Positions 5,994-62,267 are shown, numbered from the whole stretch's first letter. The stretch is DNA of 63,760 nucleotides, filler included, from Stramenopiles sp. TOSAG23-6 (GCA_900128565.1; 9 parts of 9 records of this genome joined end to end with filler, not necessarily neighbours in it), one strand, 5' to 3'. Program-made: numbers and translations. The notes: generated by a model from the letters alone, not told the origin.

Positions 5994-7758
5994 TTATCGT
6001 GCCCAAGTTTCTTTCTTGGCTAATTTTTGTCTTTTATATGCTTTTTTACCCCCTTCATTTTTTCGATTTTGACTTTGAAGAAATCGTTTTTTCGTGTTTT
6101 TTGTAAATGATTTATCCGCTAACATTTCTGCAACAAAATTTTGTTTTCTTTCTTTTTTAGTTAAATTTGCTAATTTACGTGGTTCAAATGCACCAGCAAC
6201 AATTGTACCCATTTCAAATTGATTTGGTAAAATTTTATCATCATTTTTGTTCATTTTTTTATGTATTATGAAAAATATTTTTTTTTTTGGATAATAAAAA
6301 AAATTGTTAGGTACAAAATTTTTTACAAAATAAATAAAAAAAAAAATTTAAAAAAAAAAAACGTACATAAAATTGTTTGGTATGAATAAATCGTCGCATT
6401 TGCAAAGTTTGTAAATCTCTTTTTAATTGTGCATTAACAGATGGAGTTTGAATTCGAACTCTTGTAGCTTCATTATGAGCTTGAGCAGATTTGAGACGCA
6501 TGTATTGTGAGAAAAATATTTTCAATTTTTTTTTTTTTTTTCGGTAAAAAAAAAATCGTTAGGTACAAAATTTACTATGAAAAAAAAAAAAAATTCAAAA
6601 AAAAAAATCGTTAGGTAAAAAATTTACTATGAAAAAAAAAAAAATTCAAAAAAAAAAAACATACATTCTTTGTATATCATTTGCATGAAGCGAAATATTA
6701 TCTTTTCCAATATCAGTAATTTTCACATTGGATGGGAAATTTTTGTTATGTTGAATTGTTTTCTTTTTCGTATTGTTTTCTTCTAATGGAGCAGGTTTGT
6801 CAGCAAACTGTAAATAGGGTGAAGATTCTAAACCACTCTGAAGTGTCAAAATTGGTTGTGCAGTGTTAGGGTTAGGGTTTATAGATTTTGTTTTTTTTGA
6901 TATTGTACATTTCTCTGTTAGTATTGTTGGTTTAGGGTTAGGGTTTTCCTCTTTTGTGCTTGTTATTACTTGCATTGCATTCTGAACTAAATTAAAAACA
7001 TCATCATCATCATCACTTTCATTGTTGTTTACATGTTCAACATTATTTTCATCATTAACAAGATTATTTGCAAGACTATTTACATCATCAATTTCACTTT
7101 GTTCTTCTTCATCTTCATCCCCACTAATTTTTAAAGAATCAGGAACACGATCTTCAGGAATATCAGACAGCCTCTCTTTACGAGTCGCTGTATTCTTTCG
7201 AATATCACTTTCTTCAGCCCAAGTATCATTTTTATTACTTAAACCAATGAAACTTATATAGTACGTAAAAGAATCATCTTCATTATATTTAACTTGAACG
7301 ATTTTGGCTTGATCCCATCGTTCGGATGTATTCGTCTCTCGCAAAGCTTCTACAACATCCCCTTCTTGCCATGCAGGGGTAGGTAGTATTTTCTTCTTCT
7401 TTTTTGTTTTTTTTGAGGTCTTTTTCTTGGACTTTTTGTTTGTTTTCTTTCCATTTTTGGTCATTTTTTTCTTTACTTTTGTGTTTGTTGAATCTGCACT
7501 AGATGAACGAGAACGAATACGTGCACTAGAACGAGTCGCAACATGTTTATTTTGTTGGTTATTCAATGTTTTTTTGTTTTCAACCTTTGTAAGAGTGCGG
7601 GTACTTCTTCGACGTGTGGTCATTGATTCTTCTTTTTTTTTTTTACTTTGTTTTGTTTTTTGTGTCTTTTGTAGTTTTTGTGTATTGTTAGACGTTGATT
7701 CTTCCTGCACTGTCTTTTGAGTACGACTACTACGTCGTAATGACTTCTTTGTCACCAT
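5994..7758 (-). CDS. FCF2: Fcf2/DNTTIP2 pre-rRNA processing protein with N-terminal Tudor-knot/chromo-barrel-like segment; 3 exons
   Basis: LKRDLQTLQMRRFIHTKQFY-KK...PNQFEMGTIV...TKKERKQNFVAEMLAD after removing introns 6500-6664 and 6261-6366; YYISFIGLSNKNDTW resembles a Tudor-knot. Confidence 0.85.
6261..6366 (-). other. GT-AT family intron (106 nt)
   Basis: tat|GTACGT...CATAATACAT|aaa restores the Fcf2 'FYKK' motif. Confidence 0.85.
6500..6664 (-). other. GT-AT family intron with internally duplicated core (165 nt)
   Basis: at|GTATGT...CACAATACAT|g; core present twice. Confidence 0.75.
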
Positions 7759-7844
7759 TATAGTTAAACAATAATGTTACTAATTCTAATAAAGACAATA
7801 TTTTATAATAGGAGAGAGACCTTTCCGATACACCTGAAGACAGA

Positions 7845-7872
7845 CACACACACACTCTCTCTCTCTCTCTCT
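7845..7872. repeat. (CA)n(CT)n microsatellite in divergent promoter region
   Basis: cacacacacactctctctctctctctct. Confidence 0.8.
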
Positions 7873-8126
7873 GTGAGCGAACTTGACACGCTGAATCTAC
7901 CACACAGGTTTTGTACCATTTTGGTACGAAAAACACAAACCTGCTCCAAACTCATTTTTTTTGATCAATGATTCATGAAAACAGTTACAAAATCTTTTGA
8001 CATCTCATCTGTAATCAACACAATTTACATTTTTTATCAGTGTTTTTACTATTTAGAGTCAATTTCTATATCCAAATATCACAGTACAAACCAACTAAAT
8101 AAATGATACAGTACTGCTAATAGAGA

Positions 8127-11100
8127 ATGACGTCATTAGTAGGTCATACGGTGGTAATAAAACCACCCTCTTCTTCACGTTTGTCTTGTCCAACGATACA
8201 AAACGAACAAAATGAACAAAAAGAAATGGCGAAACAACAAAACCATCGAGTTGGAGCTGTAATTAAACATGACATTGAAAGGAATCTATTATATGTCATA
8301 TATAATAATGATACTTCTGGATCTGTCTTGTACAATCCTGCTTACATTGAAGTCAACAACTCACCCACTCTTGAAGACATTTTAAGCCACACTGTGAATC
8401 GTGACGATCCAACTACAAAAAAACAAAAAAATGAAAAATTGCAAAGATTAGCTTCTGCTTTATTGACAAATGAAAACATCAATGTAGACAATACACTTTC
8501 TCAAGCACTTTCTATTGTATCATATAAAGAAAGTAATGGAGAAAATATACTTGGTAGTGTTGTTGATATTATATTAGAGAGTTATTGTGATGATATGTGG
8601 TTAAGTAGGAAAAATAGTACGGCAAGGGTTAGGGTTAGTGACGTACATTCACTGGAAAAAGAGAAAAAAAAAATGCAAAACCCTAACCCTATCGCCAGTA
8701 TATCTTCCAGTGGTACTGATGATGATGATGATGATAATAATAATAACATGGATGAAAATAGTAAACAAAGTATTCAATATACGCAAAATAATTGGTTATC
8801 ATCCGCAAAGAGAAACGAAAATAGAAAAGAAATTGATATTTTTTCAAAATTGAATTTTGAAAAAACATCTGAAAAAGAAATTGAAAAAACATCTGAAAAA
8901 AAAAGTATTACAAAAAATGCTGTTCGTGGTCCTGCTGGACCTTCTTTTCATACAATGGATATATATAACGATAAACCTATACCCAAAACAACAAATATGA
9001 CAAATATAAAAACAAATAGAACAAAAAAAAAAGAAAAAAAAATGTCTTTAACAAACACGAAATCTTTGGAAAGTCTTTCGAATCCATTTGNACCGTCTTT
9101 TCCTATACAAAACTCTCTATATAAAGAAACCCTAACCCTAAATGAAAGAAATGAAAGAAAACGAATATCACCGTATACAATAAATACGGAAACAGTACCT
9201 ACTAGTCACTATTTAGGAATAGATAAATATCATTCCATTGTAACAAACCCTAACCCTAGTACTTTGACAGAAACAAAACACGAAATATCTGTACTCTATC
9301 AAAATAACCCTAACCCTAATACAAGGACCAATGAAACTGTCAAACATAAACAACAATTTCGTGTAGGAAAACCATTCGATAAAGGCAATAAAGGCAAAAG
9401 TGTTTTTTCAACCACAGCATCAAGTGTTTTACAAGATTCAATGTACCTAAATAACCTAAATAGTACGACTAAAAGTATACAAGATATGTTAGGTACAAAT
9501 TTTGGTACAAAAAAAATAAATTCGAAATTGAAAAAAAAAAAAAAAAGGGAACCCTAACCCTAGTACAATATTTTTAAAAATTCAAAAAATTCAAAAGACA
9601 TATTGTTAATAAATGAACGATATGAGCGAGATAAATATATTATTGAACATGGTACAATCATAGTAAAATTTGTTTTTCAACTTCCTTACAAAAATGTTGA
9701 AATTGTGAAAATGAAGTTACATGTACGTGTTTCATTACGAATTTCAAATTTAGTTTTTTTATACGAAATTTTCTACGTAACAAATTTTTTTAGATTTTTT
9801 TTGGAATTTCAAATTTATTTTTTTATAGGAAATTTTGTACGTACGATTATTTTTGAATTTGTATTCTATACTTTTTCATTACGAATTTAATTTTTTTATT
9901 GAATGTTTGGGGGTTGATTCATAAATAAGATTTTTTTTTTTTTTGATATTTGATATTTGATATTTGAAATTTGAAATTCGATTAAAAATTAAAAATTAAA
10001 AATTAAAAATTAAAAATTGTAAACCTAACAAAAAAATTTAAATGTTTTACATATAGTCTTATACTACATGACAANCACTGGTCTACACAATATTATTTCA
10101 TCCAATTTATTGAAAAATTAACTGAACAATATTTTAACTATACAAATTCAGTACCTAAAGAAAATTCTCAAATTTGTCTCCACTATGAAGATAGGGTTGG
10201 GGATTGGATNCGTATTCCTGGATTTCGTGCTTTTTCAATTGCTGTAAATGAAATTCGAAATAAAATGATTAAAAAAATAGAAAAAGCATATTTTAAAAAA
10301 ATACAAAGTGATTATTTAACAATGAATTTAAATATAGATCATATTATGGAAGANTCTTCATTGGTTATATTTGTTTCAAATAAAGAAGAAGAGGATAAAA
10401 AACACGAAACACATGAAACACATGAAAAACACGAAAAACAGTCAACCACACAAATTCTCCCACAAAACCAACAAAATCAACAACAAAATCAACAACAAAA
10501 TCAACCTATGCATTGGCAACGAGGTGAATTATTAGGTAAAGGATCATATGGAAAAGTTTTTTCTGCATTAGATTGTACATTTTCATGATAAATTTTTACT
10601 ATTCATTTTTTTTTTGTAGTACATTTCGTACCTAACAAAAAAAAATTTTAATTTTTGAAATATTTTTTCACAATATTGTAACAACTGGACGACATTTTGC
10701 AGTAAAACAAGTAAGTTTAGAAAAAGCTGGTATACAATCTTCAAAACAGGTTTGTGCGCTTGAAAAAGAAATTTCTTTATTATCAAGGCTAAANCATCCT
10801 AATATTGTCAGTTATTTGGGGTCACAAAAAGAATCAAAACATCCAAAATCAAAAAAAAGTGGAAAATTATATATTTTTCTGGAGTTATGTGGAGGTGGTA
10901 GTATAACAACTACAATTAAAAAATTTGGAGGGAAATTACCAGAATCAGTCATAAGACAATATACAAAACAGATATTATATGGTTTAGTATATCTTCATAA
11001 TTGTAATATGTATGTTTCCATTACTTTTATTATTTCAAATTGTATAATTTTTTACACGAAATATTTTTTTATTTTTTAATTTTTTTTTAAATTTTTTTTA

Positions 11101-11584
11101 GAAAATAATACTAGTATATACTAAAGAAAACACAACGAATTGAATATATTGTTGTACAAAACATTGTACATAGAGATATAAAAGGTTCAAATTGTTTAGT
11201 ATCGCGAAATGGCACAATAAAATTAGCTGATTTTGGTTGTTCTCGAGTTTTACATTCAAATAACCAATCTAAAGATGCAAGTCAATCTTTTGATTTGACG
11301 GCTGTTGGAACACCACAATATATGTACGTTTTCATTTCAATTTCGAATTGTTTTTTTTCGTACGAAATTTTGTACCTAAGATTTTTTTTTTTGAAATATT
11401 TTTTCATAATCCATGGCGCCAGAGGTGATGATGAAATCAGATAATTTACCTGAAAATAACCCAAATTTTTTTGTTATGAGTTTTGACGGAGAAGCAACAA
11501 TTGAAAAATTACGTAACAAATGTGAAACTATAAATACAAAAAATACAAAAAATACAAAAAATACAAAAAATACAAAAAATACAA
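8127..11584 (+). CDS. STE11/MEKK-like MAP3K with PB1-like segment; multi-exon, truncated by contig end
   Basis: [57 protein letters not shown] after splicing; YEDRVGDWI resembles PB1. Linkage to the 8127..9557 ORF is uncertain. Confidence 0.8.
10575..10678 (+). other. Family intron with probable GT-TG ends (104 nt)
   Basis: t|GTACAT...CACAATATTG|ta gives [15 protein letters not shown]; no AG or AT acceptor gives this frame nearby. Confidence 0.6.
11010..11164 (+). other. GT-AT intron (155 nt)
   Basis: at|GTATGT...ACAAAACAT|t restores [14 protein letters not shown]. Confidence 0.85.
11324..11414 (+). other. GT-AT family intron (91 nt)
   Basis: at|GTACGT...CATAATCCAT|g restores kinase GTPQY-M-APEV. 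Confidence 0.9.
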
Positions 11585-11628
11585 NNNNNNNNNNNNNNNN
11601 NNNNNNNNNNNNNNNNNNNNNNNNNNNN

Positions 11629-11640
11629 TTAATTAATTAA
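11629..11640. other. Artificial contig spacer; also at 23276, 34797, 46312, 57827, 59323, 60818, 62312
   Basis: Identical TTAATTAATTAA (stops in all frames) flanked by N runs. Confidence 0.95.
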
Positions 11641-11744
11641 NNNNNNNNNNNNNNNNNNNNNNNNNNNNNNNNNNNNNNNNNNNNTTTTCGTACGAAATTT
11701 TGTACCTAATAACAAAAATCTTGTACTATTTTTTCACAATACAT

Positions 11745-12188
11745 GCTTTCTCCACTAAAGTTTTGGAGCTAAATTCTGCTGGAAAAGTTGTTGTGCGTGA
11801 TAAATTCGCTGTGACATACTGTAACGACTTAGATACCTTTCATAATGATCTTCGTCAGGAATCTGGTGATCCTGAGTTAGAAGATTGTGTCAAGATTAGA
11901 ACTGTGCCAGAACGATTTATTTTTACAGTAGAAGTAACAGGTGCTTTGACACCATCTGAAGTGGTTCTCTCTGCGCTAAAAATTATTGAAAAGAAAATTG
12001 AGATAGTTGAAACGCAACTCAAACATGAAATTGAGAATGAGGGACAAAATACAGATATAAATGGTGTTGTAATGGATAAAAGAGGTGACATACAAAATTT
12101 ACCTCGGACGTTGCCAGGTCGTTTTGAGTCTGCTGATACTGCAGCTCGGCCACTTCTCCCAGGTGAGTTGTATAGTGTTGGTCGCTAA
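11745..12188 (+). CDS. RPB3: RNA polymerase II subunit RPB3-like, last exon (5' part off contig)
   Basis: RFIFTVEVTGALTPSEVVLSALKII; preceded by the family acceptor CACAATACAT ending at 11744. Confidence 0.75.
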   Translation, partial: AFSTKVLELNSAGKVVVRDKFAVTYCNDLDTFHNDLRQESGDPELEDCVKIRTVPERFIFTVEVTGALTPSEVVLSALKIIEKKIEIVETQLKHEIENEGQNTDINGVVMDKRGDIQNLPRTLPGRFESADTAARPLLPGELYSVGR

Positions 12189-12397
12189 GATTACTTTTAG
12201 GAGTGTGCAGTGGAGATATATACAGATTTTGCAACACTTTGATACAATTGAATGATAAATTTATGACAAAATTTTGTACTTTATGTATGTTATCGAAATA
12301 TTATTACTAGCTGTAGTACGAAAAAAATGTATCCAATACTCTGAATCAAGGACTTTATTTTTTTTTGTACCAAAATGTAATACCCAACAAAAAAACA

Positions 12398-13820
12398 TTA
12401 CTCATTATTCGCCTTTGAAGTCCATGCAACAAGCCACTTTAAATTAGTAAGTAAATATTTTAACGCAAAAGTCCATTTTTGCCAGTCACCTAATTGAATT
12501 GAGTAGCCTCCTATTTTATAATCCTTAATTTGATACGGCATATGAATGGTACGATCAACACGTGCCGCATATCGACCAAGTTCATCAAGACAGGCAAGAA
12601 AAGCAACCATGTATGGTGAAAAAAAACTTTAAAAAAAAAATTGTTAGATACAAAATTTTCTTAGTACACTCAAATGAAGTACACAATTAATTAGGGTTAG
12701 GGTTAATGAAAACAAACATTCCTCGATTATATGCACTTTTACCACGCCAACCACCATCCCAATATAGAGGATTGTAGTTACGCTCATCACCAATACGACT
12801 CACTCTAGAATACGATCCTTTTGGTATAATTCTAAATTTGCTAAATTTAAAATTCAAATGACTTTTAGCAATAGTTGTCATTAGTACAGCTGCCTGACCC
12901 CAAGCCGCATTAATTTCAGCAAAATCCACAAGTTGTGTCGGAAGCCTACCTAATCTGAATGTGTTAATTGTACCAAATGGACCCGAATGCCATATATAAA
13001 AAGCATCATTATTTACATTCGTTCTTTTAAGTTGTAATAATTTTTCATCCAGGCGTTGCTCCTGAAGTACCAGTGACCTCAACTCTTGGGTATCACAATC
13101 CAATTGAAGTTCCCAGTTGCCTGTTTTTTCCCAATATTTTCTGGATGATATTTTTAGTTTTTTTGTCTTTAATTTTTCTATTCTTAATTCATTTTCAGTT
13201 TTCTCTACTTGTAGCGTTACTTGTGACACTTCTTTTTTCATTCGTTCCAATTCGAGTCGAAGTTCCGCCAGAGAGAAAGAAGAAAATTCCCGAGACTTTG
13301 TTTTTGTTTTTTCGTTCGATGCCTTTGCTATATTACATATAGTTGAACTGTTATCACTGATATCTACTTTCTCCAAAGATTTCATAAAGTTTAGATATAA
13401 ATCACGCTCAGCAAGAACTTCTTCCAACTCTTTTTTTACTCTTTCTTCTGAATTCATACTGCAGCGAGCACACAAAGGTTGACATTCCACGGGATCACTT
13501 GCTAATGGAGAACAAAACCTTGCCAGGCTACACAGAGCACTCAAGGAACTCTTGCTATCATAAGTCAAAGAATGTATCATATCATCAGAATCACTCCGTG
13601 TTGCGTTATGCTCTACAGTCCCATTATTCCCACTCGTTGAATCTTTCAAAGAGCCAGCCTGGACAAACTTCCGAAGAGCGCGGAATCGATCATTAAATGA
13701 TTCTTCAGGTGGTAATAGAACTAATGGGTAGCCGCAACATTGACAGGCAGGGTCCCAAGAGGATTTATCCCAAGCCACTTCAAAATCTACCGGTGGAACT
13801 ACTTTTTTTGAGTCAACCAT
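12398..13820 (-). CDS. ATG6: Beclin-1/Atg6; 2 exons
   Basis: QPLCARC, LKRTNVNNDAFYIWHSGPFGTINTFRLGRLP, EINAAWGQ, AFLACL, WTFALKYLLTNLKW. Confidence 0.95.
12609..12717 (-). other. GT-AT family intron (109 nt) containing a telomeric dimer
   Basis: at|GTTTGT...CACCATACAT|g restores YNRG-M-VAFLACL. Confidence 0.85.
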
Positions 13821-14276
13821 CTATATTACGTGGAATATTTCCTTCCTATAACTATAATACTCTCAGTTCTCAATATATTTCGAAGCAATACTTTTTGCTT
13901 TTTTTTGTCTAGATGAAGCAAAATGAGATATGGTCAATTGGGTTATTGAATTGAATCTAATCTCTAGACCAAATAATCATCTATAAAATATGCATAAAAT
14001 ATTTTCTGGTGATTCATGACCCGTGGAAGACTGGAAGAAGAATCATCTATAGGAATCGAATATGGCGGCGATGGCGCCACAACAACGCGATGATGACACG
14101 TCATCATCTGACTCGGTTTTCCGTTTTTTGTTTGAAAAGAACCGTGTCGTCCGTTGTCGATTTTTTGCTTGTGTTGTGTCTGTCTGTCAATAAAAAATAC
14201 TTGGAGGATACGTTTATTTCTATTGTATATTCATTGTAACATTTCCCTCTTTATTCTTTAATATAACTAATGTAAA

Positions 14277-15858
14277 ATGGCGTCCAAAGTTCTTGGAAAT
14301 AGTAGAGGTGTTGGTTCATTGTGGAATCCAAATTCGTACCACTGGGAAGAAACAAATCATACAAAGTTCTCTATACAACTTCTTGAACACCTTTTCAAGT
14401 CTATTTCAATTGACTGTGGCGACGCGACGTGTCACATAAAGGAGGTTAGATACGTACGCGGTGATTCAGCAGTCAACATTCGCCGAGGGAAAAAAATTGC
14501 AATATTTGAGTTTGAAGCCCAGTTGCGATGGGAAGGATACTCAAAGTTAACCAAGAAAAAAAGTAAAGGCACAGTTGATATACCTTCAATTGTCCCTGAA
14601 GATGTTGAAGATGACGAATTTGAAGTTCATATATCTGGTGACTCTGGACCAGCTGCTACACTCATGCGAGATAAAGGAAGACGTGCAATTTACGCGGCGG
14701 TCAGAAATTTTCTCAAACGTTTAATGAGTATTGGTAATGATCATGCTGCAATAATAGCAGACAAAAGTCGTCGCATTGAAGCAAAAAAAAAAACAGATGA
14801 AGCAATACAGTTAAAAGGTAAAGAAAAATTAGCAATTGAAGAAAAAATACGTCAACAGGAAGCAGAAATCCTTGGTGTGTCCTCAATGGAAACAGAACGA
14901 AAAGCCGCTCTCCTTCCTTTGAAAAAAACAGTGAAACAAAAAAGTAATCCTAATCCGACTACCATTAAACAAAAGAAAACCCTAACCCTATTACCACCAA
15001 CTCCACCTGAAAATTCTCAAGACATTGGTGATAAAATCTCTACAATTTCGATAGAAAATAAAGCTTTTGTAGCTGCTCATTCGGCTGAATCCGCTGCAAG
15101 TAAATTAATAAATCCATCTCCACTTTTTGCAACCAAAATATCTCAAATTTCCCCAACAGAAAAAACAGAAAAAACAGAAAAATCATTTCAGCTTGTACAT
15201 TTTCAAAATTAAATTTCAAATTATTTTTTTTTCATAGTAAATTTTGTACCTAACAAAATATTTTACAAAACAAAAAAACAAATATTTTTTTCCAATACAT
15301 GGAAGTCAGTGGAATGAAAGAAGTTTTCATTGGGAAAATGCCGATATCACAAAATGGGCTATTCAGACATTAAGAAAAAAAATTTGTAATATATCAAGCC
15401 CTAACCCTAGTCAAATATCAGTCACAAAAATTGAGAAATTGGAAGGTACAGCAGAATTTGCCTCAAGAAAAGGAAAACAAATAGTTTTATTTGAGTTTAT
15501 TATAGAAGCCAGTTGGAACGGGAAATTATGTGATGGTAGTGGAAATATACTCGTTTCTACAAATGGAACACTTACCTGGAGAGAGTGTGCCCCAGACAAT
15601 TTAGATCCAGACGATATCCATATAAAATTTTGCAGTGAAAATTCTTCAAATGCTATAAAACGGCTAGAAAATATCGCTTCTGTAAAATTACGCGCTAGTT
15701 TGTTACGTTGTGTTTGTGAATTAGAAAAAGATATGTATTTTGAATTTTTTTTTCAATTTCGAATTTATTTTTCGTACGAAAATTCGTACCTAACGATTTT
15801 TTTTTGAAATATTTTTCCAAAATACATACGTAATGGGAAATTTAGGATCTCTGAGTAA
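14277..15858 (+). CDS. Protein with two Aha1 N-terminal (Hsp90 activator) domains; 3 exons
   Basis: WNPNSYHWEE...RRGKKIAIFEF and WNERSFHWE...RKGKQIVLFEF; introns 15195-15300 and 15735-15827. Confidence 0.8.
15195..15300 (+). other. GT-AT family intron (106 nt)
   Basis: ctt|GTACAT...TCCAATACAT|gga gives FQL-GSQWNERSFHWE. Confidence 0.85.
15735..15827 (+). other. GT-AT family intron (93 nt)
   Basis: Full consensus; splicing gives LEKD-I-RNGKFRISE*. Confidence 0.7.
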
Positions 15859-15959
15859 ATTTCCTAAAAAGATCAGATCGCGCTCGCTCCTGTAAAAATG
15901 GAGCGATATAAACCGGTAATTTCGAAATTTCTATTCAAATTCTTTAGGCGCCATTTGTA

Positions 15960-16845
15960 ATGCAGATGAGCATTATATTATGTACATTGGGATTCTTCGT
16001 GTCTCAAGTGAATTCAGGTGATGTGTTCAAGCCAATTAGTGCACCTAACCTTAATGGACCTTACTTGCGGAGTCAAACTCCTCATGCACCTTCAACGGGT
16101 AAATTTCCAACGTCCTTCAGTGAATACCCTAAAGGAGCAGAATATTTTGATATATATTCTCCAAATATCACGTCCTTATATTCGCAAGTATTTTGGAAAG
16201 GTTTAGCTCCTGTTTCCCTTCCAGATGAAATTGTGGCCCGATATGCTGGCAAGGGGATGGCAGTCATTGGCTTTGAGATGGACCAGGTCCGAAGAGGTTT
16301 CGACGGAGAACCAGACGTGAGTGTACCTATAACTGTAGCTTATAATCACCATTTTGAGAGTGTAATGATTGGTTCAAAAAATGAATTCAAATTTGCGGAA
16401 TTTGATAGTCCTGAAGATCCACGATTACAAGAAATAAAATCCAGTAGAATGGGTGGACACGGATTACCAAGTGAGAAACACGCGTGGATAGTTGAGAAGA
16501 ATGAGGATGAGATACCATCAACTTTACCTACAAAACAAAACTTTGGTGGTGCTAATGGTGGTGAATATCGATTATCATATCATGGATATGCTCCTGGTTT
16601 TGTCCAAGTGATTGAAAGTCCGCACTCATTCCAAATTACACCAATGCAAATTGATACTTGGGAAAGAGATAAAATGCCTATTTCAGGTCCGGCTCCATTT
16701 GTGTCTGGTCCAGTACCACGGAATAATCTGGCTCCAACAACAGGCCCAGATGCTTTATATTCTGGGTTACTTGAATGTCCTGTGACTACACGTATTTCTA
16801 AAGTGATTCATGGAAAATATTTACTTTTGTCAGCTGGTCCTTCTT
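15960..16845 (+). CDS. Secreted hypothetical protein, first exon; continuation probably lost by a mis-join inside the following intron
   Basis: Signal peptide and a long ORF with YNHHF; splicing to the next acceptor gives a stop within 3 codons. Confidence 0.6.
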
Positions 16846-17108: not shown

Positions 17109-17139
<31 letters not shown>

Positions 17140-20100
17140 CAATATTGTCCAAAATATATATGTACCAAAATGTTATATTTAATGCAAATCTTGAAAATTC
17201 TCAATTATGCCATCAAAATTTTAATTCATTTACCGACGGTAGTTTTGTAGCAAATAAGCATAGGCTGGACACACTAAATGATCAACGCGTACGTCATTAT
17301 ATTTATTTTTTTTAAGTACGATATTTTGTACCTAATTTTTAAATTTTATTTACATTTTTTTACATTTTTATACGAAATTTTTTTAAATTTTTTTAAAATT
17401 TTTTAAAATTATTATATTTTAAATATCAATCGAAAATTTTTTTAAAATTTTTATATATTTTGTATATTTCTTTACAGAATATATTTTATCAGATAAAGAT
17501 ATGATTGAAATACAACAATTAAAAGCAGAAGAACGAGAACGAGAAAAAATTTGTAGGTTTAAAAAAAAAAAATCGTACGAAATTTTGTACCTAATGATTT
17601 TTTTTTAAAACCCTAACCCTAACCTAACCTAATACATAAATGAACAATACAGTAGCTCAAGCGTTAAAAGATGCTCATAATAAGCATATTTGTCGTATAC
17701 GTGCTCAGCGAATTCGAGGTAAAACTTCTGGTGAACGAAATTGTTTTTTAGGTATTTTAATTTTTTTCATACGAAATTTTGTACCTAACATTTTTTTTTC
17801 AAATTTTCAATTTTAAAATGATTCTAGAAAATGTTTTTTTATTTCTACAATAATAATTTTTTATTTTTGTACAAATTTAAATGTAAATTTAAATTTAAAA
17901 TTCATTTAAAAAAAAAATTGAAATATGTCAAACCATTGCAGGTATATCAAAAGATGGTTCTGGACAAACCTGGCAGAGTCTTTCTGAAACACGAAATCAA
18001 CAAAAACGAAATCAACGAAAGTATAGGTACAATCATAATAATAACACACCTAAATTTTTTAGACAAACGAAATCTTCATTATTAAGACAAAAACGATACC
18101 AAAATGACCAAAATAACAAAGAAATGACGTCACTGTTGATGTCTCACAGCAGGTCTGTCAAAAAAAATCCAAACTCATCACGAAATACTAAAAAAACTCC
18201 AAAAACGTTACGTAAAAAATTACGTAGAAAGAAAAATGAAGAAGAAACAAATACAACAAATACAACAAATACAACAAATACATCGTTTTGGTATAAGCAG
18301 CGAAACACAAAAATAAGTGAAAGTGAAAAATCTGTAAATTTTAGAAAAAAATATGAAACTTTTTTGAATTCTGAAAAAAATTTTGAAAAAAATTTTGATA
18401 ATAATTTTGATAATAATATTGAGGAAAGACCTCAATGGTCTCTTAGTAAAAATAATATGAAAAAAGTATCCTATAGTAGACCTCATATGGCTCCTGAGCG
18501 TGACACAAATGAAATTTTGGGTATACAACAAAATGATTCCAATTATTCTGGAGATGTGCGTTAAAAAAAAAAAAAAAAAAAAAATTTCATACGAAAATTT
18601 TGTACCTAACCAATTTTTTTATTATTCAAAAAAAAAATATTTTTCACTCTATACAATGTAAATATTACAGAACGTCATAATAGCGACATCAAAGTATTTA
18701 CTGCTCCAATGGGTGATTCTACAACTGGTACAACAAATTCATATAAAAATATAAAAAAGTCAAAAAATAATAATTTTGGACAAAATGATAATTCAACAAT
18801 TTTGTATGAAAATTTTGTACCTAAGGAAAGTTTTCCCGATAAACACGAATTCTTGAATGGTTTAGAAGAGTCTCTTGAATCTATTGATCATGATGTAAAC
18901 CCTAACCCTAATGAAAGTTGGGTCTTTCATTCAGATGTACTAGATGGATTACACGAAATATCAAAAGAAGAAGAATTTGTAGAAAACCCTAACCCTAACA
19001 AAAATATTCAGACTACAAATGACTCATTACACGAAATATCAAAACAAGAAGAATTTGTAGAAAACCCTAACCCTAACAAAAATAATCTGACTACAAATGA
19101 CTCATTACACGAAATATCAAAACAAGAAGAAATCGTTGAACATTTGAGTGAGTTTTTTTTCAAAATATTTTTGAAAAACCTTGAAAAAAAAAATTCGTAC
19201 ATAATTTTGTACCTAACGATTTTTTTTTTCAAAAATATTTTTTCACAATGAATTCTCGAAATCATCAAAAATTGATATGAATATGAAAATATGGCAAAAA
19301 GTGATTGATACTGCAAAGAACAATACTAGTGGTAGACCGGGTAACGTATTCTTAGAAGACATCTCCAAAGAAAATATTGATTTTACAATGATTACAGAAT
19401 TATTACAATTACAAAACAATTTTCATACAAAAAAATATACACCTACCCGTACGTTGTTTATATACAAAATTTTGTAAAGAAAAAAAAAAAAATCTAAAAT
19501 TTTTTTTCATACAAATTTTCATACCTAACATTTAAAAAAAAAAATCTAAAAAAAATCTAAAAAAAAATTTTTNATACAATATTTCATACCTAACATTAAA
19601 AAAAAATTGTATATATATTATATACTCTTTAGGTATTTTACGCATCAATCATCCATACGAGCAAAATATCATTGGATCTTCAGAATCGACTTCAATTATT
19701 GAGTTACAAAACAAAACAAATCATAATGATATTCAAATGTTATTTTATGGTGGAGATAGTGAGGAGTTGACATCTATTGCGAGATTTGGTTTTTCATCAT
19801 TACACGAAAAACACGAAATGTCTACTAACCCTAACCCTAGTCACCCACAAAATGGTGATGCTTCTATAATTATCTGTTCTGATGATATCAATATTGCTGA
19901 TCAATTTCATAAATCATTACCAGAGACTCATTCTGTTGCATTACCTGGCCATTGGAAAGGTATAAAATTAACTGCCACGTGGCGAACACTATTAGTCGCT
20001 GTTGCGCCTGGTGAAATTGTAGACACAAACCCTAACCCTAGCTATACAAAAGGTTTAAAAGGTGTAAAAAAATGTATAGAAAAAAATGACTTGACGAATG

Positions 20101-20381
20101 TACAGTATATAATAAAGAATCTTGGAAGCCAAACAAATAAAACCAAAAATATAATGCAAAAAATAAAAAAAGCAGGATATAATTCTATTAAAGTTGATTT
20201 GTTGAATAATGATGAAAATGATAAAAAAACTGAAAACCCTAACCCTAGTACTGAAACATTTGAACATAATGAATCAAAACAAAATCAAATTAAAGAGAGT
20301 AGATTTTTTTTAGATGTAAAAGACAAATGTGTGTTACCTTGTTTTTTGATTGAATATGAATATAATTGTATGTTTAATTGA
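16938..20381 (+). CDS. Multi-exon low-complexity protein with C-terminal PARP-catalytic-like domain
   Basis: Frames joined by introns 17016-17159, 17289-17482, 17752-17941 (AG), 18556-18654, 19148-19253, 19449-19632 (AG); junction near 17553-17637 unresolved; MLFYGG..IARFGF...LLVAVAPG...VLPCFLIEY resembles the PARP fold. Confidence 0.5.
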
Positions 20382-23331: not shown

Positions 23332-24559
23332 CTGAAGCACCCACAAAATTTATTCCTTTTTTATTATTACTATTATATTCTTTTTTGTGATTGTTGCTTA
23401 TACCATTTTCTCTAAATATTGTTTTACTTTGAGCGACAGAAGATTTTTTCGTAGTATCAACATAATCACTTGCAAATCTTTGGTATTTATGATTATTAGG
23501 GTTAGGGTTATCAACATAATCACTTGCAAATCTTTGGTATTTATGATTATTTTTCATTGGCCCTTCCACACTCATCTTCCATCCTTTTTCGAAAAGCATC
23601 TGATTGACTCTTGAGTCTTCACACATGGAGCTGTTATTAGCACTGTTGCATGAAGTTTGCTGAAACGAATCAGTTTTCTCATTTTCAGAACACTTTGAAT
23701 TTTTGACACTTTTTCTATAATTACTATCAATCGGAGGAATGTCGTTTTCTTCGCACAAATTTATAGGCTGATTTGAACTAATTCTGTGAACTACTGTTGT
23801 TGGTACTGAATGTACTGCAACTTCATCATCTAAAATAACCGTGTTTCGTGTTTCGTTCTTCATGCTGGATATTTTTTCCACATTTATTTTCTCGGAAGTT
23901 TCCTTTGTGATTTTACCTTTTTTCGACCCGGATAAAATAGGATTTAAAAATGTAAATGGATTTTCACTGCTTATACTATCATTACATACACTATCATTAC
24001 TATCGGTAGTTGTATTTTTTTCCACGTCAGGGACACTATTGTCGGCAACAATGACGGGAGAATTGATAGGATCTGAAAATCTATCAAGAGTTTCCATAAA
24101 CGAGCAAGCTTCAATTGGCTGAATACTATCTGGAACAGCAACTACACATACACCTGCTTTACCATTTACTGTAGTATTATCTTTAAATCGAACGACGCAA
24201 TTCACAACACTAGTAGGGGTCAAAGCAACAGGTGCTGATGGAGGCTTCTCACGCAGAACTTCTACTTTTCTAGGTATATGGATATCTACCATCTGGTTCC
24301 GTGGAAGAGTCGTAGAACAAACAACTGGACTAGTAATGACTTCAGAAGTAACATCATTCTTTGCAGAATCATATATAGTTTCAAAATGATCATTTTTCGT
24401 TTGAACAAAAGGAGTTGTTGGGTTTGTTCTCATCGGCTGAGGAGTCGACTCTAGGGAATGTCTATTCACTCCTATTGGTGAAATACTATAACTTCGTCCA
24501 GAATCAGTTCGCTCAAACGAGAAACCCTCATCAGCCGTAACATTTACATAAGATTCCAT
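23332..24559 (-). CDS. Hypothetical S/N/T-rich protein, truncated by contig end
   Basis: >400-codon ORF; internal duplicate NNHKYQRFASDYVD. Confidence 0.6.
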
Positions 24560-30322: not shown

Positions 30323-30557
30323 TTTGTTGAAAAATTCAATAATATGGATGAAGAAATATTCTTTTCTGACCTGACCAGTCTGTAAAATTTTGCGATTGAT
30401 ACCCCTAACCCTAGCTAGGCCTAGAATATTTATACGCAGATGCATAATATTATAATTTGATGCGCCGTTAAAACGTTTTTGAGAATTGATCTTGAGTAAC
30501 TGTTGATCGGTTAAAAGCAACGAAAAACGGTTCAAAGAAGCCAGAAGTTCACATAAA

Positions 30558-51192: not shown

Positions 51193-51891
51193 ATGAGTGT
51201 ACGTTCTGATAATCCANTTACCGATAGTAATATATACGCTGCTGTGGAAGATGTTTTGGCTAGTTCGGAGATGCAGAAGCTACATACGTTGCTTCAAACC
51301 TCGTTAACANACCTTCCCACAAGTAGTTATGACTACAACGAACATATAAATAAAGTAATATCGATGTTTAGTGATAGTGTAAAAGGTGCTGTGCATAGAA
51401 ACAACAAAAAACGTAAAAGTTCAACGTTTAGGTCAAATAAATGGTATTCATTAGAAGATGCGAGATTGAAGACGGCAGTAGAAAAATATGGGAGAAAGTG
51501 GAAGTTAATATCAGAATTCGTCGGGACAAGAAATAGCACACAATGCCGACACCGCTGGACTAAGACATTGGCACCTGGTATAATAAAAGGACGATGGAAA
51601 AAACATGAGGATGATTTACTCAAGGGCATGAAAATGATAGACAGTTCTTGGAAAGATATCACCAAGGCAATTGTGGGTAGGAGTGAACAACAGTGCCGTG
51701 AACGCTGGGAGAAATGTTTAAACCCTTTGTTAAAGAAGAANAANTGGTCTTTAGAGGAAGATACAATTATTATCAGCACGCAATCAAAAATAGGAAATAA
51801 TTGGTCTACAATTGCAAAGTCATTGACGCAGCGAACAGCACAGGATATAAGAAATCGATTCAGAGCTCTTCAGTCCCGAAAAGTAGTCTAA
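51193..51891 (+). CDS. Three-repeat Myb transcription factor
   Basis: Three W-spaced repeats: RNSTQCRHRW, RSEQQCRERW, RTAQDIRNRF. Confidence 0.92.
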   Translation: MSVRSDNPXTDSNIYAAVEDVLASSEMQKLHTLLQTSLTXLPTSSYDYNEHINKVISMFSDSVKGAVHRNNKKRKSSTFRSNKWYSLEDARLKTAVEKYGRKWKLISEFVGTRNSTQCRHRWTKTLAPGIIKGRWKKHEDDLLKGMKMIDSSWKDITKAIVGRSEQQCRERWEKCLNPLLKKXXWSLEEDTIIISTQSKIGNNWSTIAKSLTQRTAQDIRNRFRALQSRKVV

Positions 51892-54249: not shown

Positions 54250-54650
54250 TTTTCTGTCTTTGATTGCTTTTCAATATTGTTGTATTACCTTAAGAATCTA
54301 AATTAAGCAAGTTGGTAGAAAATACTCTTATAACCTACAGTACGTCGTACAGTTGTTTCAGAAGTGTATAGAGAGAGACCTTGTGCAANCACTTCAGACT
54401 GAACAGAGGCACGTGCCACGTGGTCACTACTAACCCTAACCCTAGATATAATATCTAGAGATATTCTTTGCATATTCTTTGTACGAAACAACCAAATATT
54501 AAAAATAATATCACGAAAATATAAACCTAATTTTATAAAATGTATTTCTGGATGAAAAATATACCAACAATGAATAAAGTCAAAGGCAGATTGTCTCATT
54601 TCGGTATCAGCGATTTGTATATATTTGTATTGGATATAGATCTAAAGACA

Positions 54651-56126
54651 TTAGATAAATGTTTTGCAAGCAAGAACNATGAGAGATATACCATACACAA
54701 CTAGAAAGAATATACCCCTCCGCANATTCAGTATTGCTTTTTTCTGTTTACGGATAAAAGCAACGCCTAGCAAAGATATAAACGAAATACAAACAATGCC
54801 TGTTTGTAAATATGCTGTAAACTGTAGAGAAGAAGGATCATGGACAATCACTTTACCACCTGAGAGAATAGTGATCATCCATATAAACCCTAACCCTATA
54901 AGAATGTTACAAATCTGTGATCCAATACTATTACTAACAGCCATACTTCCATATCCTTTACGTGCTACCGTCACAGATTGAATCATGTCTGGAATTTCTG
55001 CACCTATTGCAACAATAGCAGTTCCAAAAAAACCAACTTCATCTGAAACATTCCACATTGAACACCAACGTTCCATAATAGCAGCAATCAAAAATGAAAA
55101 TAGGGATATCCATAGAAAAGCCACAAAAAATGTTGCTGGCCAAAAGTTTTCCCATGGAGTGCCCATTTCACATGGTACACANGTATATGAAAATGCCTTA
55201 TCTAAAGGTAGAACCATTATACGTACTATTTTCATTATTTTTGATGACGACAATTCCGAATCAACTTCAGGCAGTTGCAATTCTTCACTATTTGCAGCTG
55301 GTTCTTCTTGAGAAGTATCAATAGAAAGTAAACCTGTACTACTANTATTTAACTGTTCCCCAGCAACATTAATACCTGNAGATGGAGGCATATATTCACC
55401 AGTGGGAGCTCTTTCTCTATTAGCAGAGACTGTAGCCTCTTCGAGGGCGGCAAGCTCTTTTTCTTCTGCTGTTGCGGAATCCAGGAGAGACGTCCGACGA
55501 ACTTGGGCAACACTACGCCTCGCTTCGGCCACAAAATTAGAAAATGGAGCTGGCTCCAATCCAATAAACTTCCTTCGATAGACACGGCGGATCACCGGTG
55601 CTACTAATAAAACTATAATATATATAACATATATAGAGACAAGAGTAGCGGCCTCTACTATATCGATGACACCGTCATTGAAGAATTGGCAAAGACATAN
55701 AATTGCTATTAAATAAAAGGATATATCACGCAGTAATGGACGGCGTTTCAACTCTAATGGTACTCCGGAAAATATTCCACAACAACCAGGAATTGCCATA
55801 AACGCAATCATACCAGAACCTAAGATAGCACCGATACTTAAGGTAATGGAGTTATCAGAGTTATCAGTCGTTGTTGCTGACTTCAAGGTACTTACAGCGC
55901 TGATAATTATTTCGGGCGCTGCCGAACCAAACGCCATGAACGACGCACCAGCAACATCTTCAGGTATATGAAATTTTAAGCATAAGGTCTCGAGGCTTGC
56001 AACGAGGTGGTTGTCACATACTACAGCTACACCATAGAAGCTGTAAAGAAAAAGAACAAACTCGAACAAAATCCCCGCCCAGTTCCCGTCGATCGAATCA
56101 AGGCACGCATTTTGTACATTACACAT
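54651..56126 (-). CDS. K-dependent Na/Ca exchanger (SLC24/NCKX-like)
   Basis: DVAGASFMAFGSAAPE and AIGAEIPD...GYGSMAVSNSIGSQICNIL alpha repeats. Confidence 0.9.
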   Translation of the reverse strand: MCNVQNACLDSIDGNWAGILFEFVLFLYSFYGVAVVCDNHLVASLETLCLKFHIPEDVAGASFMAFGSAAPEIIISAVSTLKSATTTDNSDNSITLSIGAILGSGMIAFMAIPGCCGIFSGVPLELKRRPLLRDISFYLIAIXCLCQFFNDGVIDIVEAATLVSIYVIYIIVLLVAPVIRRVYRRKFIGLEPAPFSNFVAEARRSVAQVRRTSLLDSATAEEKELAALEEATVSANRERAPTGEYMPPSXGINVAGEQLNXSSTGLLSIDTSQEEPAANSEELQLPEVDSELSSSKIMKIVRIMVLPLDKAFSYXCVPCEMGTPWENFWPATFFVAFLWISLFSFLIAAIMERWCSMWNVSDEVGFFGTAIVAIGAEIPDMIQSVTVARKGYGSMAVSNSIGSQICNILIGLGFIWMITILSGGKVIVHDPSSLQFTAYLQTGIVCISFISLLGVAFIRKQKKAILNXRRGIFFLVVYGISLXVLACKTFI

Positions 56127-56312: not shown

Positions 56313-56637
56313 TAGTGATTGGAAACTTCAAGCACGAAACTTACTACGAAACTTTATCGTGAAATTTATATGAAACTTCATGAAACTTCAATGAAACTTT
56401 CACCCCGTTTTTTCCGTAAATGAAACTTACTGTAAAATATACAAAGTTTCACTTAGGTTAGGGTTAGGGTTACCCTAACCCTAATGCCATATGTATATTG
56501 GGCAATATAAATCCAATAATATTTCGTGCATGAAACTTTCTTTTCACAAATGAAACTTATGAAAGTTTCATTGAAAGTTTCATGAAAGTTAGTGAAACTT
56601 CATGACAAAAAAAAAATCATGAAGTTTCCAATCACTA
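56313..56637. mobile_element. hAT-type MITE (325 bp)
   Basis: Perfect 18-bp TIR TAGTGATTGGAAACTTCA; 8-bp TSD TAAATAAA (56305-56312, 56638-56645); many subterminal TGAAACTT copies. Confidence 0.88.
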
Positions 56638-57689: not shown

Positions 57690-57939
57690 GTACGTTTTCA
57701 CAATTAATTTCAAAATTATTTTTTTTTCGTACGAAATTTTGTACCTAACAAATTTTGACTACATTTTTTTTTTACNANACATNNNNNNNNNNNNNNNNNN
57801 NNNNNNNNNNNNNNNNNNNNNNNNNNTTAATTAATTAANNNNNNNNNNNNNNNNNNNNNNNNNNNNNNNNNNNNNNNNNNNNGTACGAAATTTCGTATGA
57901 AAAAAAATTAAATTAGAAATTCATATAAAACATACAAAC

Positions 57940-58628: not shown

Positions 58629-59609
58629 TTAAAGCTCAATTTCGTTGTGTTGTTTTGCTATAATATAACTCGAAAAAACATTTGGACTTGTTGTGAAGAA
58701 GGCATTTTGAAGCATTTTGAAAATATTATTATCACACGAAATATTTCAATTTTTTTTGTTTCGAGATTTTCCATCAAAAATGGCTGTCAACTTATGATGT
58801 TATATATGAAAATATTGGCCATTTGCATGTCACCCAACATTTTGACGCTCCTTGAAAGCGACTGGGTCACGTTGACATTACGTCAATGTCAGGGGATAGC
58901 ATGAACATAGTTACAGAGGCTACTTTCCCGATGGATATGAACTCCACTGTTCAGAGTAATGACTCCAATGGGCGAAAAGTTGTCCATTGGAAAATAGAAC
59001 CGTATCGTTCTACGATGCTGAAAGCCATTAATCTCGTTTTAGAAAAAGGACTGCCCACAAAGCAAGTATGTCGTGATTATTCAAATCTTTTCTCATGGTT
59101 TATGTATTATAATTGACTCATTGAAGTATCACCATGGCTCAGCTTTTATGGGCCATTTTTTTTCCATTTTGCTTCATTTATAGTGTTAAGTCCCAACTGT
59201 AAAATATTGTCTGACACTGTACCATCATACCTGCTAAACTAACGCTTTAACTTTTTTTTAAATATGAATCACTACAGANNNNNNNNNNNNNNNNNNNNNN
59301 NNNNNNNNNNNNNNNNNNNNNNTTAATTAATTAANNNNNNNNNNNNNNNNNNNNNNNNNNNNNNNNNNNNNNNNNNNNAAGAATATAATAATTATTATGA
59401 CCAGTGCTGTCGTGTCACATCGACATCATGATAACAATACCTTTTTTGAATCATTCCTTAGTTAGCTTAGGTAACAATTTTTGGTACGATTTTTTGAATG
59501 ATAGATTATTTTTCGTTTTTTTCCTTAAAATTCTAAGTTTTCTTCTTCTTCTTCTTTATTTATTTATTAAATCATCAAATGAGTCAAAACAAAATTTATT
59601 GAAAGCACA

Positions 59610-60719: not shown

Positions 60720-61025
60720 GTACGTTTTCATTTCAATTTCGAATTTAGTTTTTTTTTCGTACGAAATTTTGTANNNNNNNNNNNNNNNNNNNNNNNNNNN
60801 NNNNNNNNNNNNNNNNNTTAATTAATTAANNNNNNNNNNNNNNNNNNNNNNNNNNNNNNNNNNNNNNNNNNNNATGTACGTTTTCATCATGAATTTCTAA
60901 TTTATTTATTTTTTTCATACGAAATTTTGTACTTAAACAAAAAAGATTTTTTTTTTTTTGACATGTATGTTTTCATCATGAATTTCTAATTTATTTCGAA
61001 TTTGACATATTTTTTCACAAGACAT

Positions 61026-61939
61026 GGAGCATCTTGTCCAGTAGGCATTGGTGTAAGTTGTAGTGCCGACCGTCAAGCTTGGGGGAAGATCACTGAAGAG
61101 GGTGTGTTTATTGAAGAATTAGAACGTGACCCTGCTAAATACTTGCCTGATATTGATGAAAAAACTTTACTTGGTGGTGGTGATGTTCACGAGGTGAATT
61201 TAAATGATGGCATGGATAAAGTATTATTGAAACTAAATGAATTACCAGTCAAATCTAGAGTATCTCTCACAGGCACGTTAGTAGTTGCTAGAGATATTGC
61301 ACATGCTAAACTTTTGGAAAGATTAAATAAGGATGGAGAGTTGCCACAGTATATGTACGCTTTCATTATAATTTATTTTTTTCCACTAGACTTATTTTTT
61401 CATACCAAAATTTGTACCTAATAAATTCTACATTTTTTTTTTTCACAATATAGGCGTGACCATCCTGTTTATTATGCAGGCCCTGCGAAAACTCCTGAAG
61501 GAATGGCATCTGGATCATTTGGTCCAACAACTGCAGGACGCATGGATAGTTATGTTGATGCATTCCAAGCAGCTGGCGGTAGTAAAATTATGCTTGCAAA
61601 AGGAAATCGAAGTAGCCAAGTGACTCAATCATGTTTGTTCTCTCATTATGATTTGTTTTTGAAATATTTTTTTTCATTGAAATTTTTGTACCTAACAAAA
61701 ATATCATTTTTTTTGAAATATTTTTTCACAACTCATGTAAAAAGCATGGCGGATTTTATTTAGGATCTATTGGAGGACCTGCGGCAGTTTTGGCTATGAA
61801 TTGTATTAAAAAAGTCGAAGTATTGGAATATGAAGAATTAGGTATGGAGGCTGTTTGGAAGATCGAAGTAGAGAATTTTCCTGCCTTTGTCGTGGTTGAC
61901 AATAAAGGAAATGATTTTTTTTCTAAATGGCAAGCGTAA
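61026..61939 (+). CDS. Class I (Fe-S) fumarate hydratase, C-terminal part; introns 61345-61453 (GT-AG) and 61633-61736 (GT-AT)
   Basis: [64 protein letters not shown]. Confidence 0.95.
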
Positions 61940-61993
61940 AAAAATGATATAATAAAGTATTGTTGACAATATCAGATTTATTATTGAAAAGAT

Positions 61994-62267
61994 TCAAGTA
62001 CCGATGGATAAGTTTTCTATTGACTCATAAATTTCAATACTATCGTTAGGTCCTTTCTTTATACTATTATTAGGGTTAGGATTGGCTTCTTTCTTTAAAC
62101 GATTATGAATACTTTTTACATTTATTAGTATCTCTTTTTTAGATGTATTTATAATTTTTGGATTTTTTTTTTCTATCTCTTTTTTAGATGTATTTATAAT
62201 TTTTGGATTTTCTTTTTCTATCTCTTTTTTAGATGTATTTATAATTTTTGGATTTTCTTTTTCTATC
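61994..62267 (-). CDS. C-terminal fragment of an unknown gene with a 45-bp coding tandem repeat
   Basis: Open frame IEKENPKIINTSKKE x3 ending in TGA. Confidence 0.45.

Follow-up and report, generated by a model that had tools for sequence, protein, structure and literature searches.

The window analysed here is a stretch of 63,760 bases (62.7 kb non-N) from Stramenopiles sp. TOSAG23-6, and all results reported below come from this one stitched stretch. It consists of contigs chained by N44-TTAATTAATTAA-N44 spacers (five pieces of ~11.4-11.6 kb, then pieces of ~1.4 kb; Table 1), so pieces adjacent in the window need not adjoin in the genome. GC content was 26-41%, and long open reading frames (ORFs) in the standard code encoded ordinary eukaryotic proteins, with LRR, Arf, COMM, Beclin/Atg6, Aha1, SNF2-PHD, Tudor/Agenet, MORN, EF-hand, PX, Na/Ca exchanger, cathepsin and Myb products or domains among them; the only Myb gene (51139-51891) encodes three ordinary Myb repeats. 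Two abundant repeats were present: a two-unit telomere-like motif, CCCTAACCCT, which is the subject of this report, and an intron-forming family. Gene models were built by us from the ORFs, two homology-checked junctions and the intron-forming family.

CCCTAACCCT occurred in 24 exact copies on the two strands of the 63.8 kb (~1 copy per 2.7 kb; Table 1), compared with a mean of 0.01 and a maximum of one in 100 dinucleotide-preserving shuffles. The recurrent unit was a 13-mer, AACCCTAACCCTA, found as 20 exact copies and five one-mismatch variants, four of which differed at an end position only. In the flanks, position -3 was A or T; A stood at -2, -1 and +1 in 23, 22 and 23 of the 24 copies; position +2 was A in 12, G in nine, T in three and C in none; and position +3 was T in 11, C in nine, A in four and G in none. 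Twenty copies were single, and only two inverted pairs were found, one of them formed by the 8625 copy and 8679-8690 (a perfect 12-nt pair, head to head, 42 nt apart). The original prediction had reported more than 20 motifs of about two units; all 23 of its starts were recovered within 2 nt (minus-strand starts 6868, 6934, 12693, 23498, 30403 and 56460 lie 1-2 nt later than first listed), a 24th copy at 56473 proved to be the inverted partner of 56460, and no run of three full units was present in the window. Its clustering of copies in intron-rich genes was partly right: 18 of the 24 lay within the first 23.0 kb of the 62.7 kb of non-N sequence (p = 1.7e-4), and 24 of the 45 matches to the intron-forming family fell in the first 23 kb, where that family was about twice as dense.

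The window had 43 CCCTAA hexamers, 36 of them belonging to the double motif, and single units outside it were at background (AACCCTA, 6 against 3.1 expected from a third-order Markov model). The 48 matches with up to three mismatches comprised the 24 copies, 14 readings of them shifted by 6 nt, one shifted reading of the copy at 62071 and nine independent matches with one to three mismatches, compared with 9.7 expected at zero to three mismatches from shuffles. The motif family is thus all-or-none: it consists of exact two-unit copies, and neither half-sites nor longer arrays nor decayed relatives were in excess; single units at background and few mismatch copies gave no sign of gradual build-up in place. 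Continuation into imperfect CCTAA units was seen only at 17611 and 56453-56470. The extra units of these tracts (17621-17632 and 56453-56457) were CCTAA/TTAGG, one C/G short, and lay on the +1 side of the C-strand motif, which may reflect the start of addition.

By the gene models, 17 copies lay in exons, two in introns (12693 and 17611), one at an ORF stop codon (9552), three in divergent promoters (30403 and 56460/56473) and one in a convergent 3' intergenic region (54434). Nineteen of the 24 were in ORFs of at least 150 aa. Pfam-domain matches contained two of the exonic copies (15399 and 54888), and the rest lay in segments without a family match. When synonymous codons were reshuffled among 46 non-overlapping ORFs of at least 150 aa (46.9 kb, 1000 runs), the ORFs held a mean of 0.12 and at most two copies, against the 19 observed. 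Among 14 NPNP peptides, 13 were encoded by the single combination AAC-CCT-AAC-CCT (AACCCTAACCCT), the share expected from codon usage being ~1% (AAC 240 of 979 Asn codons, CCT 219 of 552 Pro codons). These results show that the constraint acts at the nucleotide level; the register and length of the motif are fixed as well. Two statements of the original prediction, that most copies lie in coding exons and that DNA rather than peptide is constrained, were borne out, but its account of translation in many frames was overstated: 13 of the 17 exonic copies were read in the Asn-Pro frame (12 NPNP and one SPNP), two as TLTL, one as RVRV and one as GLG. This strong bias towards one frame and one strand is the main unexplained feature of the motif.

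Exonic copies were all located beyond the first third of the ORF or gene model that contains them; in ORF 8127-9554, for example, copies start at nt 499, 555, 1004, 1122 and 1182 of 1,428. The late position may merely mirror where poorly conserved tails sit.

The intron-forming family, with the core TTTTGTACCTAA, comprised 22 exact cores and 45 nhmmer matches (E<1e-3, 15 seed copies) in the 62.7 kb. Its members begin with GTAYGT, contain a CCTAAC that resembles a branch site and a run of T, and have a conserved tail (..ATACATG) that is followed by the first AG; their ends resemble short inverted repeats (ATGTAY...RTACAT). Long frames joined across the repeat in consistent phase (200/165 codons at 15195-15309, 73/200 at 44909, 156/79 at 1596 and 199/51 at 6664). 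Homology confirmed two junctions: CFLG|ISKDG aligned with a homologous protein, P0001, across a GT..AG intron at about 17757-17940, and the Pfam match to the Beclin BARA domain continued from one ORF (positions 1-113) into the following one (positions 107-179). From their sequence the elements look like introner- or MITE-type (miniature inverted-repeat transposable element) introns. A role as a promoter or 5' untranslated region (5'UTR) cassette was dropped, since the ATG is out of frame and long ORFs join across the repeat; AT-AC or GT-AT splicing was dropped as well, since canonical GT..AG fits the Beclin and P0001-like genes. Several contigs end inside the repeat. A 21-mer of the family found one metagenome contig, L001 (1,076 nt), with one repeat copy at about 90-180 and no telomere motif; the remainder of this contig looks unrelated, with adapter-like sequence at its end, and it is possibly chimeric.

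Six copies (five loci) show indel and break-junction anatomy. At 23498 the telomeric filler of 11 nt was bordered directly on either side by one of two perfect direct repeats of 43 nt (23455-23497 and 23509-23551, spacing 54), and two in-register bases from each repeat extended the telomeric match to 15 nt. This is the classic picture of a staggered break, in which both flanks are filled in and a short addition, primed by a TT-3' end, is joined through TA. At 56458-56484 the two arms of 13 nt were 100% complementary with 1 nt between them, a palindrome that looks like the expected product if both 3' ends of a break had been extended and then joined. The consensus of the intron-forming family served as an internal "empty site", and in all three family copies carrying the motif the latter was extra or replacing sequence, not a set of point changes. 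At 17611, ~15 nt of the consensus were replaced by ~23 nt of telomere-like sequence between a branch-like CCTAAT and the 3' AG near 17652; at 9552, ~16 nt were added after the GTAC of the element; and at 12693, ~14 nt were added 13 nt into the host intron (GT..AG, about 12627-12717, minus strand).

Protein comparison added one case. When 19575-20378 was used in an exhaustive search, P0001 (43-51% identity) emerged as the single true relative, compared with which the stretch carrying NPNP at 19829 was 18 residues longer; P0001 has NPNP nowhere and is too distant to resolve four-residue indels outside this one expanded loop. A second candidate relative, P0002, was discarded as it matched a low-complexity stretch only. 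No relative of ORF 8127-9554 was found among the matches listed (proteins of near length) and none of residues 135-364 of ORF 6667-7758, and the Beclin protein had no match in metagenome contigs. An 18-mer of the motif had no match in viral contigs and three in prokaryote genomes, all in bacterial metagenome-assembled genomes and taken as chance.

We favour the reading that the motifs are short, template-limited additions of telomerase type at DNA breaks, filtered by what translation tolerates, and would give it an even chance of being right. A free 3' end at a break would be extended by one short, non-processive round of telomerase-type RNA-templated synthesis, adding ~11-13 nt in a constant register (G strand TAGGGTTAGGGTT), and the extended end would be joined to the other through a microhomology of 1-3 nt. 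Joining would sometimes duplicate the flank, lose a few bases or, with both ends extended, leave a head-to-head pair. In a compact, gene-dense genome most breaks would hit genes, and the survivors would be harmless copies that keep the frame, overwhelmingly sense NPNP in poorly conserved segments, together with those in introns, UTRs and promoters. Templated single-round addition was taken as the origin because the anatomy matches that of the short interstitial telomeric sequences (ITS) of horse and primates and because the register and length recall the plant telo box. We infer that the enzyme is telomerase, that the fixed length comes from single-round synthesis and that the frame and strand bias comes from selection on peptide and transcript; TTAGGG is assumed to be the organism's own telomere repeat. 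Break-repair scars had been among the candidates of the original prediction, and the structural evidence at six of the 24 copies (five loci) directly supports them, but the copy at 54888 is not an insertion and that at 15399 involves no net insertion.

Several observations weigh against this reading. Decayed copies were missing, although steady neutral turnover should give more copies with one to three mismatches than exact ones. The copies must therefore all be very young, which at 1 per 2.7 kb implies an extraordinary rate, or be maintained; to explain the missing decay, one would need a burst so recent that divergence is still well below 1%, copies that are quickly lost, or purifying selection that preserves the exact sequence. 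The length of vertebrate scars is highly variable, but nearly all the copies here have two units. The whole window held no telomere array of at least three units, no chromosome end and no Rfam match, telomerase RNA included.

Individual copies also fit poorly. At 54888 the I-G-L-G-F residues lie in a conserved helix of the transmembrane alpha-repeat, and since the alignment to NCX_Mj is free of gaps this copy is no insertion; it may be a coincidence, because one chance copy in the ORFs has p ~0.11 under the codon null. At 15399 the loop of the Aha1_N domain is no longer than that of the human, yeast or paralogous domain. The exact copy at 14980 belongs to a tandem duplication of 32 nt with only 77% matches between its two copies, so at least one motif copy looks old; the degenerate AATCCTAATCCGA at the matching place is a decayed sister. 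This duplication (14934-14996, plus strand) shifts the frame, and the same ancestral motif is read as NPNP in the first, degenerate copy and as TLTL in the second, exact one.

The frames and strands raise a further difficulty. A neutral scar process would be expected to use four open frames and both strands and to leave a higher density in non-coding sequence, none of which was seen. Independent exonic events were distributed over NP, TL, RV and GL as 12:2:1:1, with 18987 and 19065 counted once because the latter was copied from the former by a 78-nt tandem repeat (18948-19131, 2.4 copies, 97% matches) and is no independent event. When the places for a 12-nt insert beside the observed flank pattern (A-R-Y / R-Y-T) were counted per strand and phase, the four stop-free classes were nearly equally available (27:27:27:19%), so the skew is significant (chi-square p = 3e-4; NP in at least 12 of 16, p = 9e-5). 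The C strand was in sense in 17 of 19 independent transcribed events (p = 7e-4), a tally that includes the two intronic copies and 9552, the orientation of which follows its host gene and not the surrounding repeat copy. Density was 0.41 per kb in ORFs and 0.32 outside them, so non-coding sequence was not denser, whereas if the six strand-by-phase classes had arisen equally and NP alone had survived, it should be several times denser than exons.

Alternating polar and non-polar residues are said to be disfavoured in proteins, and part of the frame skew may come from selection on the product: TLTL, RVRV and GLGL alternate in this manner, and NPNP would do no harm where a protein is disordered. 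Sense transcripts that contain G-rich telomeric RNA could disturb telomerase. The supply of primers on the T-rich antisense strand was considered as a cause and rejected, as it leaves the frame and strand bias unexplained.

The main rival, a serious one that we consider less likely than repair, is that the motifs are maintained cis-elements, bound on DNA by a dimeric telomere-repeat Myb protein (TRF/Tbf1/Teb1/TRB type) or read on RNA by a protein recognising the C-rich AACCCUAACCCUA. Such elements would account both for the lack of decayed copies and for the bias in frame and strand. They might be born by templated insertion, purifying selection then keeping them exact in the cheapest coding frame (NPNP, in sense). 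The 13-mer is the shortest sequence with two complete TAGGGTT cores; both cores were present in 23 of the 24 copies, the base 5' of the G-strand core was Y in 21 (including nine with a non-telomeric C) and the next base out was R in 20. Decayed copies and single and triple units were not seen, 14980 remained exact within an old duplication, and the copy at 54888 arises entirely from which codons encode its conserved residues; GGG appears there two times, though this codon accounts for 77 of 730 Gly codons. The C strand was in sense in 18 of 20 transcribed copies, including all three non-coding transcribed ones, and exon density was not below non-coding density.

Other observations speak against maintenance. 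The purine/pyrimidine preference of the flanks is partly given by the codon after NPNP. A site in double-stranded DNA needs no strand bias, and an RNA reader leaves the promoter palindrome unexplained. Neither intermediates nor half-sites were enriched, which makes stepwise building of sites impossible; the clearest loci (23498, 56458-84 and 17611) look like repair accidents; the motif-bearing genes have no evident common function; and copy density is very uneven among contigs. The telo-box or Myb-site idea of the original prediction may hold as a rival or an added layer: the G strand can be read as two overlapping TRF1-type half-sites, but the distribution of the copies is unlike that of plant telo boxes.

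Origin by insertion and upkeep by a reader are compatible, and a copy could be born by the former and kept by the latter. In its widest form this would be a living genome-wide code, in which telomerase-type insertion is followed by a reader (a Myb dimer on DNA or a C-strand RNA binder) that keeps thousands of copies exact in exons, in a single frame and in sense, a proposal that we regard as doubtful. Were it true, the sites would mark fast-evolving, intron-invaded genes, for instance for chromatin state, nuclear positioning or transcript handling, and the plant telo box would have a counterpart within genes, laid over the protein code.

That amplification, assembly or the joining of contigs created the motifs as an artefact is very improbable. 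The window is stitched by linkers and contains many single N, and the runs that hold its DNA best are two small runs of one sample: of sampled words from 12000-19500, 0.89-0.90 were found in two small DNA runs of one organism, 0.22-0.44 in three seawater metagenomes and 0.05-0.16 in five RNA runs. These seawater data sets mark the source organism as a marine planktonic eukaryote. Against an artefact, the copies lie mid-contig with long frames open on both sides, they follow frame and strand rules foreign to chimera formation, and the independent seawater metagenomes hold 22-44% of those words, a figure for the region as a whole and not for the motif sites. The ~90 single N, which are probably ambiguity codes, were spread very unevenly over the window (nine in the first 23.2 kb, six of these between 5.7 and 23.2 kb, and ~55 between 46.4 and 57.8 kb); the least polymorphic or least deeply sampled contigs are the motif-rich ones.

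Sites of repeated telomere addition in yeast are comparable de novo addition sites, and an exact short telomere-like sequence could prime telomerase. The idea, also raised in the original prediction, that the copies seed chromosome fragmentation or de novo telomere addition in the manner of ciliate breakage sequences is nevertheless very improbable and found no support: 17 of the 24 copies lie within intact long ORFs, their orientation tracks the strand of the host gene and not the contig, and no copy adjoins a longer array (of at least three units). We give scarcely any credence to selection for NPNP as a useful short linear motif with the DNA identity as a by-product, since the N-P-N-P or S-P-N-P reading of 13 of the 17 exonic copies is set against the near-uniform codon combination described above and against the same 13-mer in two other frames, introns, promoters and a stop codon. 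An origin in which a single AACCCT hexamer slipped or was duplicated locally, or in which a transposon such as an excised intron repeat left a footprint or target-site duplication, was rejected with the same near-certainty: the motif is formally a 6-nt tandem duplication and its copies co-cluster with the repeat family, but single units were not enriched, triple units were absent, the flanks of the repeat family have no telomere-like bases and its introns occur in all three phases.

The settings of the individual copies are collected in Table 1. ORF 6649-7776 (minus strand) had weak Pfam matches only (chromo/Tudor-knot). The Aha1-like gene (14271-15804, plus strand) apparently encodes two tandem Aha1_N domains, joined over an intron of the repeat family that is 115 nt long (15195-15309, phase 0); a search of its ORFs revealed no AHSA1/START-like C-terminal domain. 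The gene at about 17652-20378 (plus strand) is long and multi-exon, with six exonic copies and one intronic copy; P0001 (1471 aa), its only detectable relative, is similar in the C-terminal domain, and both proteins end in LPCFL[IV]EYEY. The copy at 30403 lies upstream of the first Met of the minus-strand Rad17/UBA-like ORF. Directly upstream of the copy at 54434, in a convergent intergenic region, two CACGTG boxes lie within CACGTGCCACGTGG (54400-54433), and an AT-rich near-palindrome is situated just downstream.

Table 1 Copies of the telomere-like motif, example members of the intron-forming repeat family and contig spacers in the window
Feature	Coordinates	Strand	Setting or reading	Remarks
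Motif	6868..6877	-	Exon, NPNP	C strand in sense; ORF 6649-7776 (-)
Motif	6934..6943	-	Exon, NPNP	C strand in sense; ORF 6649-7776 (-)
Motif	8625..8634	-	Exon, RVRV	G strand in sense; ORF 8124-9554 (+)
Motif	8681..8690	+	Exon, NPNP	Right arm of inverted pair with 8625
Motif	9130..9139	+	Exon, TLTL	C strand in sense
Motif	9248..9257	+	Exon, NPNP	
Motif	9308..9317	+	Exon, NPNP	
Motif	9552..9561	+	Stop of ORF 8124-9554 via CCC-TAA	Inside antisense intron-repeat copy, right after GTAC
Motif	12693..12702	-	Intron of Beclin/Atg6 gene	C strand in sense; 13 nt from 5' splice site
Degenerate copy AATCCTAATCCGA	14946..14958	+	NPNP	3 mismatches; matching place in first copy of 32-nt duplication
Motif	14980..14989	+	Exon, TLTL, linker of Aha1-like gene	Second copy of 32-nt tandem duplication
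Motif	15399..15408	+	Exon, SPNP	Alpha1-beta1 loop of second Aha1_N domain
Motif	17611..17620	+	Repeat-family intron	Two perfect units, then two CCTAA units
Motif	18900..18909	+	Exon, NPNP	
Motif	18987..18996	+	Exon, NPNP	In 78-nt tandem repeat
Motif	19065..19074	+	Exon, NPNP	Duplicate of 18987
Motif	19829..19838	+	Exon, NPNP	Stretch 18 residues longer than in P0001
Motif	20030..20039	+	Exon, NPNP	
Motif	20237..20246	+	Exon, NPNP	
11-nt telomeric filler	23498..23508	-	Exon, NPNP	Between perfect 43-nt direct repeats
Motif	30403..30412	Listed (+)	Probably non-coding	Between divergent Rad17/UBA-like ORF (-) and Sel1-repeat ORF (+)
Motif	54434..54443	+	Non-coding	Between convergent PX-domain ORF (+) and Na_Ca_ex ORF (-)
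Motif	54888..54897	+	Exon of Na/Ca-exchanger gene (-), I-G-L-G-F	G strand in sense
Head-to-head pair	56458..56484	.	Divergent promoter region	Copies 56460- and 56473+
One-mismatch copy AATCCTAACCCTA	62071..62083	-		Only independent one-mismatch copy; corresponds to the end coordinate first listed, 62082
Repeat-family member	1470-1597	-		
Repeat-family member	11311-11416	+		
Repeat-family member	15190-15302	+		
Repeat-family member	39873-39976	-		
Repeat-family member	44904-45000	+		
Spacer	11585-11684			
Spacer	23232-23331			
Spacer	34753-34852			
Spacer	46268-46367			
Spacer	57783-57882			
Spacer	59279-59378			
Spacer	60774-60873			
Spacer	62268-62367			

If the copies are repair patches, the organism inserts telomeric sequence into its genes at a density for which we know of no other description, and four-residue protein insertions and short tandem duplications would arise from telomerase-type repair to a measurable extent. 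If they are maintained, they represent an unusually sharp nucleotide code overlaid on coding sequence and, in a marine lineage that has received little study, offer a handle on what telomere-binding proteins do at sites other than chromosome ends. Opposite predictions follow from the two readings: repair patches should be polymorphic, lineage-specific sites, and maintained elements common, conserved ones. No report of in-frame exonic two-unit telomere motifs was found in the open-access literature searched.

Telomeric tracts of vertebrates are mostly non-coding. In horse and primates, short ITS are described as appearing by sudden insertion at repaired breaks, with flank duplication at 3 of 66 loci and deletion at 20 of 66; bases at the break can be in register, and some stretches stand head to head (PMC7215372). 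The copies reported here resemble such break-repair ITS (Giulotto/Nergadze model, PMC7215372) in that perfect repeats lie at internal sites, where several look like insertions; flank duplication, deletion and head-to-head arrangement were found at 23498, 17611 and 56458-84, and at 23498 two bases on each side continue the register. Unlike vertebrate ITS, which have few to hundreds of units, they are of a near-fixed two units at ~1 per 2.7 kb; they also differ in that 17 of 24 are exonic and in frame, that one frame and the sense strand dominate and that decayed copies are missing.

For the plant telo box (AAACCCTA), non-processive telomerase acting on free 3' ends and adding one template's worth has been proposed as the origin (PMC3022908). 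The telo box is described there as enriched in 5'UTRs and promoters, depleted in coding sequence (2966 against 6143 expected, Arabidopsis) and tied to translation-related genes. The present motif shares with it a fixed register (AA(A)CCCT start, CCCTA end), strong over-representation and strand asymmetry relative to transcription. It differs in having two units (the telo box has 1.1-1.3; PMC3022908), in lying mostly in coding sequence and in being tied to no gene class. Enrichment in 5'UTRs or promoters was not found, with 17 of 24 copies exonic and three copies (two loci) in divergent promoters, nor was a link to translation genes, the hosts being Beclin, Aha1-like and Na/Ca-exchanger genes and several ORFs that match no Pfam family.

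A TRF1 dimer depends on two half-sites of the form YTAGGGTTR (PMC3241663). The G strand of the motif, Y-TAGGGTT-AGGGTT, would resemble the sites of such Myb dimers, with the tolerated Y at the outer position. It departs from them in that the half-sites overlap and are not freely spaced, and in that T is commoner than the consensus R at the outer position of the second half-site. The motif set belongs to the general class of interstitial telomeric repeats from break repair, within which its combination of two units only, ~0.4 copies per kb, 71% exonic placement, one dominant frame and strand and no decay is unusual.

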